Assembly: GCF_044647545.1 (NCBI RefSeq)
Contig: NZ_CP172818.1
Direction: 5' to 3' (one strand)
Length of the DNA: 64,000 bases
Source of the DNA: Escherichia coli
GTDB lineage: Bacteria; Pseudomonadota; Gammaproteobacteria; Enterobacterales; Enterobacteriaceae
The notes below the pieces were generated by a model that worked only from the letters and a program-made list of their open reading frames with translations, was not told the origin of the DNA and ran no database searches. A program made the translations under genes and the position numbers. Each line of letters begins with the position of its first letter. Position 1 is the stretch's first letter. Shown here piece after piece: positions 61,827-62,366 of the stretch.

Positions 61827-62366
61827 ATGACCGAAACGATAAAAGTAAGTGAATCACTTGAATTACATGCTGTTGCAGAAAGTCATGTCACACCTCTTTA
61901 TCTGTTAATCTGTAAAAATAGAACCTGGCTACAGCAGTCGCTAAACTGGCCGCAGTTTGTTCAAAGTGAAGAGGACACGCGAAAAACGGTGCAGGGCAAT
62001 GTAATGTTGCATCAACGCGGATATGCCAAAATGTTCATGATTTTCAAAGAAGATGAACTTATCGGCGTTATCTCGTTTAATCGTATTGAACCACTGAATA
62101 AAACCGCTGAAATCGGCTACTGGCTGGACGAATCTCATCAGGGGCAGGGGATCATTTCTCAGGCGCTGCAGGCATTGATTCATCATTACGCTCAGTCTGG
62201 TGAACTTAGACGCTTCGTGATCAAATGTCGGGTGGACAATCCGCAAAGCAACCAGGTCGCTTTGCGCAATGGTTTTATCCTTGAAGGTTGCCTGAAACAG
62301 GCTGAGTTCCTGAATGATGCCTATGATGATGTGAACTTATACGCGCGTATTATCGATTCACAATAA
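61827..62366 (+). CDS. rimL: ribosomal protein L7/L12 N-acetyltransferase (GNAT), 179 aa
   Basis: ORF 61812-62366 trimmed to [20 protein letters not shown]; GNAT fold motif ([10 protein letters not shown]). Confidence 0.85.

Follow-up and report, generated by a model that had tools for sequence, protein, structure and literature searches.

The 9-bp tail-to-tail overlap of rimL and ydcK in Escherichia coli and its form across Enterobacteriaceae

When two genes on opposite strands run into each other and share their last nucleotides, where can their transcripts end, and is the arrangement kept for a regulatory purpose or simply tolerated? This is the question raised by rimL and ydcK, which lie near the end of a 64,000-nt stretch of an E. 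coli genome (contig NZ_CP172818.1; hereafter the window). An earlier note on the same DNA had reported that the two convergent genes overlap by 9 bp at their 3′ ends, that no room is left for an intergenic terminator on either strand, and that transcription of one gene must enter the other in antisense. Our analysis leads us to regard the locus, with considerable confidence, as an ordinary tail-to-tail overlap that joins two real genes and has become frozen in evolution, and in which the antisense extension ended by Rho is most likely a tolerated by-product.

The reported overlap is correct. Read directly from the letters of the window, the shared segment at 62358-62366 has the sequence TCACAATAA on the plus strand, and both the open reading frame list and RefSeq agree with these limits. 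In the rimL frame the segment reads TCA-CAA-TAA (Ser178-Gln179-stop), and in the ydcK frame, on the opposite strand, it reads TTA-TTG-TGA (Leu325-Leu326-stop). The two frames are codon-aligned (phase 123:321), with the rimL stop TAA (62364..62366, plus strand) being the complement of ydcK codon -2 (TTA, Leu325; that is, the last but one sense codon) and the ydcK stop TGA (62358..62360, minus strand) being the complement of the rimL codon for Ser178 (TCA). The 3′ ends of two opposite-strand coding genes thus share nucleotides, which makes rimL and ydcK a convergent overlapping gene pair. Annotation choices have no bearing on where the stops lie, and RefSeq annotates the same 9-bp overlap in strains CPE35, IMT16316 and K-12 MG1655. 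In MG1655 the RefSeq coordinates are 1498938..1499477 (+) for rimL and 1499469..1500449 (-) for ydcK; the window aligns to this genome without gaps at 98.4% identity, and window positions are obtained by subtracting 1,437,111 from those of MG1655.

We also looked for corrected stop positions that would leave a gap between the genes and found none. There is zero intergenic DNA between rimL and ydcK, just as had been claimed, so a terminator of either gene must sit inside its partner. Moreover, an mRNA long enough to include its stop codon has at least 9 nt in antisense to the other gene. A perfect 12-bp palindrome, ATACGCGCGTAT, lies at 62339-62350, 8 nt upstream of the overlap, where it encodes the conserved Tyr-Ala-Arg of RimL; since the palindrome itself is not kept in other genera, it is probably due to chance.

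An overlap of this kind could arise trivially if one of the open reading frames were not genuine or if a stop codon had been misplaced through an annotation or sequence error. We found both genes to be genuine rather than spurious antisense reading frames. The rimL coding sequence (61827..62366, plus strand) is identified by the open reading frame list, GNAT Pfam matches and RefSeq as encoding the ribosomal protein L7/L12 serine N-acetyltransferase of 179 aa; its start is the ATG at 61827, the program-made reading frame starting further upstream, at a TTG at 61812. Among Pfam families, RimL matches those of the GNAT group (PF13302 at 2.4e-22), and its residues 1-178 match the Salmonella RimL structures 1Z9U/1S7F at 7.7e-80. 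It therefore combines the GNAT fold with orthology to a characterised RimL. The ydcK coding sequence (63338..62358, minus strand), assigned on the open reading frame list, Pfam and RefSeq, encodes a YdcK-family left-handed beta-helix protein of 326 aa, a putative acyltransferase. Its product matches PF18836 (YdcK beta-solenoid repeat) with 39.4 bits against a cutoff of 30, together with LbH families, and matches the Salmonella structure 2F9C ('hypothetical protein YdcK') at 7e-141; the beta-solenoid repeat and the hexapeptide-repeat region place it in the YdcK family. Nothing that we found speaks for an artefact, apart from YdcK being a protein without demonstrated function, and that explanation has next to no probability. 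The stops are read straight from the sequence, conservation across genera covers the whole length of both proteins, and crystal structures exist for the Salmonella orthologues of both (RimL 1S7F/1S7K/1Z9U and YdcK 2F9C/2PIG). The identical annotation in MG1655, these orthologue structures and the unbroken junction in 5412 E. coli genomes led us to reject it.

That last count comes from a 90-nt probe spanning the junction, which was scored when it matched in one uninterrupted piece. By this measure 5412 of 5426 complete E. coli genomes carry an unbroken junction, with at least 95% identity in all but one, and the gene order in this region of the E. coli chromosome is opgD-ydcH-rimL> <ydcK-tehA-tehB. 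Five of the approximately 5412 E. coli records with the rimL/ydcK locus are typed as plasmids and may be mis-typed replicons or plasmid-borne chromosomal segments. Insertion sequences were seen at ydcK in two strains: an IS1 in strain IMT16316, whose sequence otherwise matches the window at 100% identity, and an IS3 in strain EEC_W5, each of which disrupts or abuts the 5′ part of the gene. In strain LHM10-1, the match is split at the locus. These insertions and the split match suggest that ydcK is dispensable.

To see how far the arrangement extends, we compared one genome per species in a sample with 38 usable loci, to which Salmonella enterica was added separately. Relatives were located by exact 8-residue peptide seeds, which makes the species sample incomplete, with Klebsiella among those left out. 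Both genes are conserved at full length in the 38 species, and rimL converges on ydcK in every sampled locus except one, a Pluralibacter metagenome-assembled genome. Tail-to-tail packing with a gap of at most 22 nt is found in 37 of the 38 species, which represent at least 12 genera. The precise spacing varies. An overlap of 9 bp is present in 30 of the 38, comprising Escherichia, Citrobacter, Superficieibacter electus, Pluralibacter, Yokenella, Trabulsiella and several unnamed Enterobacteriaceae, and this form is found down to 54% YdcK identity. Salmonella and strain RIT693 have a 4-bp overlap (TTAA), the genes abut with 0 bp between them in Cedecea and Dryocola, one Superficieibacter has a 3-nt gap and Buttiauxella has a 22-nt gap; spacings from 0 to +22 nt thus belong to the genera furthest removed from E. 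coli. An overlap longer than 9 bp was seen in none of the species sampled.

Several loci in these searches had features of their own. In Salmonella enterica, peptidase M42 and PTS genes lie beyond rimL in place of ydcH and opgD. In the exceptional Pluralibacter genome (L040), rimL is absent and the gene facing ydcK is an hrpA-like helicase gene, the two 3′ ends lying 9 nt apart (3981-3991 of that locus); this reflects either a rearrangement or a misassembly. Three further records look mislabelled or contaminated: the assembly 'Chryseobacterium sp. 18061', in which an enterobacterial ydcK-rimL locus is present; a 237-bp contig of 'Alkalicoccobacillus porphyridii' with 97% protein identity to E. 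coli YdcK; and an 'uncultured Raoultella' metagenome-assembled genome whose junction is that of Citrobacter braakii.

How might the 9-bp form have come about, and what would hold it in place? The comparative series (gap 0, then 9 bp, with a RimL tail of 0-3 extra codons across species) fits an origin by loss or shift of a stop codon, a reading that we draw from the compared sequences. In the ancestral state, rimL and ydcK would have converged with approximately zero spacer, a condition that would persist in Cedecea and Dryocola (gap 0) and in Buttiauxella (+22 nt). The direction from gap 0 to 9 bp depends on taking these three genera as outgroups, which was done by sequence distance and not from a species tree. 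In the lineage of Escherichia, Citrobacter, Pluralibacter, Yokenella and Trabulsiella, rimL may then have lost its original stop, which would have stood directly after ...ARI(I/V)(D/E). Translation of RimL would have continued through the complement of the ydcK stop (TCA, read as Ser) to the next in-phase stop, and the new rimL stop would be the complement of ydcK codon -2 (TTA, CTA or TCA). A stop-codon-mutation model of this type is also the general fit for convergent overlaps (Lillo & Krakauer 2007, PMC2174442).

Once in place, the 9-bp length would have been held by purifying selection on the rimL stop, as the comparative pattern implies. Across species rimL ends in TAA, TAG or TGA, paired with TTA, CTA or TCA in ydcK. 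In the 9-bp species, ydcK codon -2 is accordingly TTA, CTA or TCA, and its switch between Leu and Ser tracks the switch of the rimL stop between TAA/TAG and TGA. Arguing from this codon usage alone would be circular, since the codon has to be one of these three in the 9-bp group, and we dropped that argument for this reason. Its non-circular form is twofold: no overlap exceeds 9 bp, even though ydcK offers an in-phase antisense stop only once in about 48 codons, and codon -2 is free where rimL ends earlier, with TCC in Salmonella and GTN (Val) in the Cedecea group. If the present rimL stop were lost, RimL would grow by 19 to more than 100 residues (roughly 20-130) in most species, and by 35 in the window. 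Reversal of the overlap would be impossible without duplicating the shared codons.

With no DNA between the genes, the next issue is how transcription ends on each strand. The built-in promoter and terminator scan returned no terminator near the junction; however, the clear intrinsic terminator that follows ydcH, the gene upstream of rimL, escaped it as well. We therefore ran a separate hairpin-plus-U-tract scan with the ydcH terminator as positive control. The control was recovered, and no canonical intrinsic terminator was found within 900 nt after either stop; neither stop is followed there by the GC-rich hairpin and U-tract expected of an intrinsic terminator, to which a bidirectional one adds an A-tract in front. 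Single-sequence folds of the two 3′ regions are unremarkable (z-scores of -0.9 for rimL and -1.3 for ydcK). RNAalifold consensus folds gave no conserved RNA structure on either strand (-3.0 kcal/mol for 37 species on the plus strand and 0 kcal/mol for 36 species on the minus strand) and essentially no covarying pairs. An Rfam scan at E <= 1 identified no family, its sole hit, to an Enterococcus sRNA model, being meaningless at 20 bits.

These results bear on the proposal that transcription ends at intrinsic or bidirectional hairpins embedded in the partner coding sequence, or through programmed head-on RNA polymerase collision there, rather than through Rho. Precedent exists for both versions: for about 20% of the genes in E. 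coli convergent overlaps, a rho-independent terminator is predicted within the partner gene (PMC2174442), and head-on collisions have been reported to aid bidirectional termination at convergent pairs (bioRxiv 10.1101/2022.10.23.513370). E. coli itself also has two minus-strand hairpins inside rimL, a strong one at 62243-62269 and a weak one with TATTTTTA at about 61920. Neither, however, is followed by a proper U-tract or conserved beyond E. coli, the plus strand offers no candidate within the 900 nt, and the consensus fold energy is close to zero. Polymerase collision, as proposed in the same preprint, requires a positioning stem-loop, and none is conserved at rimL/ydcK. Published Term-seq data contain no stable 3′ end within either gene, and plus-strand read-through rises 4.3-fold with bicyclomycin (BCM), pointing to Rho (Adams et al. 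2021, PMC7815308). Together, these findings make termination by embedded hairpins or collision improbable.

Termination by Rho, on the other hand, agrees with what has been mapped downstream of rimL. Adams et al. 2021 (PMC7815308, Supplementary file 2) list a Rho termination region at MG1655 position 1499587 on the plus strand, in the class 'antisense ydcK'. This position corresponds to 62476 in the window, 110 nt beyond the rimL stop, although the termination position is approximate because the Rho score uses 800-nt windows. Reads upstream and downstream of the region number 82 and 20 without BCM and 137 and 144 with BCM, where the upstream reads may include read-through from ydcH besides rimL transcripts; the region has a Rho score of 4.31 with p = 1.5e-8 (PMC7815308). 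More read-through on Rho inhibition, the behaviour expected of a Rho-dependent terminator, is thus seen in published data for the rimL direction only. The sequence of the extension is in keeping with this: past the rimL stop, the untranslated 3′ extension of the rimL transcript (62367..62826, plus strand), which is antisense to the 3′ half of ydcK and contains the published Rho peak, has more C than G. The C/G ratio of 1.0-2.4 over +1 to +460 after the stop resembles a Rho loading (rut) site, and the rimL direction provides the untranslated, C-rich, G-poor and weakly structured RNA that such sites consist of, its fold z-score being unremarkable as given above.

We therefore consider the claim that rimL transcription enters ydcK in antisense to be supported, both by the published map of Rho regions and by a published list of excludons described below. 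That rimL transcripts continue into ydcK follows from the lack of intergenic DNA and of an intrinsic terminator embedded nearby. They run on as untranslated, C-rich RNA antisense to ydcK until Rho ends them, which by the published BCM data happens about 100 nt or more downstream. This resembles other Rho-dependent 3′ extensions and antisense transcripts, with a BCM-sensitive region antisense to a convergent neighbour, located past the stop codon in RNA with more C than G, and the 'antisense' class occurs in many rows of the same table (PMC7815308). The assignment of rimL/ydcK to this group rests on a genome-wide score.

For the ydcK direction, the table of Adams et al. 2021 (PMC7815308) has no minus-strand entry at the locus, and the SMRT-Cappable-seq supplements contain no rimL, ydcK or ydcH entries. 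The C/G ratio in this direction is just 1.0-1.4. Transcripts of ydcK would have to end within sequence antisense to rimL, most likely through Rho followed by 3′ trimming, and we infer that their 3′ ends are Rho-dependent or heterogeneous. The stronger of the two minus-strand hairpins, at 62243-62269, lies about 90-115 nt past the ydcK stop and has an 11-bp stem and a 3-nt loop, CGCAAAGCGAC-CUG-GUUGCUUUGCG, with no U-tract downstream. It is kept in E. coli proper and decays in other Escherichia and in other genera.

Since the transcripts overlap, we considered whether the overlap is a selected regulatory device, in which antisense 3′ extensions, through polymerase collision and/or cleavage of the RNA duplex by RNase III, make RimL and YdcK expression mutually exclusive. 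The rimL-ydcK pair appears in a list of 165 convergent excludons that recur in half or more (at least 50%) of 58 RNA-seq sets from MG1655 (ExcludonFinder, 2025, PMC12288877), and rimL transcription demonstrably reaches ydcK in antisense (PMC7815308). Overlapping transcription of neighbouring opposite genes is therefore documented in the literature, by the excludon list and by the Rho region. As in other convergent excludons (PMC12288877), the transcripts of the two neighbours overlap. This property is nearly automatic for rimL-ydcK, as the coding sequences themselves already overlap, and it says nothing about reciprocal regulation. Characterised excludons have a demonstrated effect on expression, whereas here the overlap follows trivially from the geometry of the coding sequences. 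In E. coli, mscL-arfA serves as a worked example of 3′-end antisense crosstalk (PMC10070815).

Conservation could also be read in favour of a device, given that selection for antisense coupling could likewise keep the genes packed tail to tail in nearly all of the sampled species and over many genera. Several observations argue against it. The length of the overlap varies by species (9, 4 or 0 bp, or gaps of 3 or 22 nt), there is no conservation of structure or sequence beyond the coding requirement, and selection on the rimL stop fully accounts for the conservation of the 9-bp form. With so few reads (82 per 800 nt), collisions or duplex formation should be rare, and the antisense extension is limited by Rho. 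To our knowledge, RimL and YdcK have no functional link. On this balance we regard a dedicated regulatory device as unlikely; the overlap of sense and antisense transcripts from these two weakly expressed genes is most likely a by-product that is tolerated. A related proposal, that the missing spacer across Enterobacteriaceae is itself selected so that obligatory antisense 3′ extensions couple rimL and ydcK, strikes us as still more doubtful. If it were true, acetylation of L12 by RimL would be reciprocal with the putative acyltransferase activity of YdcK, and Rho would tune the strength of the coupling.

The closest match for rimL/ydcK is with the short convergent overlaps catalogued in prokaryotes. 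Lillo & Krakauer 2007 (PMC2174442) counted 58 such overlaps in E. coli and found that 33% of convergent overlaps of 5 nt or more are in the codon-aligned phase, that the commonest length of a convergent overlap is 4 bp (TTAA, CTAG and similar), and that only 20% of genes in E. coli convergent overlaps have predicted rho-independent terminators. The rimL/ydcK pair is similarly short, has phase 123:321 and fits an origin by stop-codon mutation; neither gene has a predicted rho-independent terminator, as for the other 80% of E. coli convergent-overlap genes, and the commonest 4-bp form is the state of this very locus in Salmonella. We see no essential difference from the pairs in that survey (PMC2174442), of which rimL/ydcK is one of about 58 E. 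coli cases. Within 50 kb around the locus in MG1655, other convergent pairs lie 9-103 nt apart, and the small-protein pair yncP-hokB overlaps by 23 nt.

The overlap is thus ordinary and already on record: the reference annotation has it, and so do two genome-wide surveys, one of excludons and one of Rho termination regions. Our sole and modest addition is the comparative series at one locus, from a gap of 22 through a gap of 0 to overlaps of 4 and 9, together with the single YdcK codon in which the choice between Leu and Ser is dictated by the need of rimL for a stop codon. It makes the locus a textbook illustration of how an overlap may originate and become locked in, rather than a new mechanism, and its significance beyond bookkeeping is small.

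Upstream of the pair, a strong intrinsic terminator follows ydcH at 61773-61797 on the plus strand (GCCGCC-AGCCA-GGCGGC plus T6), and the rimL ATG lies just 30 nt downstream of it. Expression of rimL may accordingly depend on read-through past this terminator or on a promoter within ydcH. Adams et al. 2021 (PMC7815308) assign to ydcH a Term-seq 'primary' 3′ end at MG1655 1498877, which corresponds to 61766 in the window; it lies 2 nt beyond the ydcH stop, before the terminator hairpin is reached.
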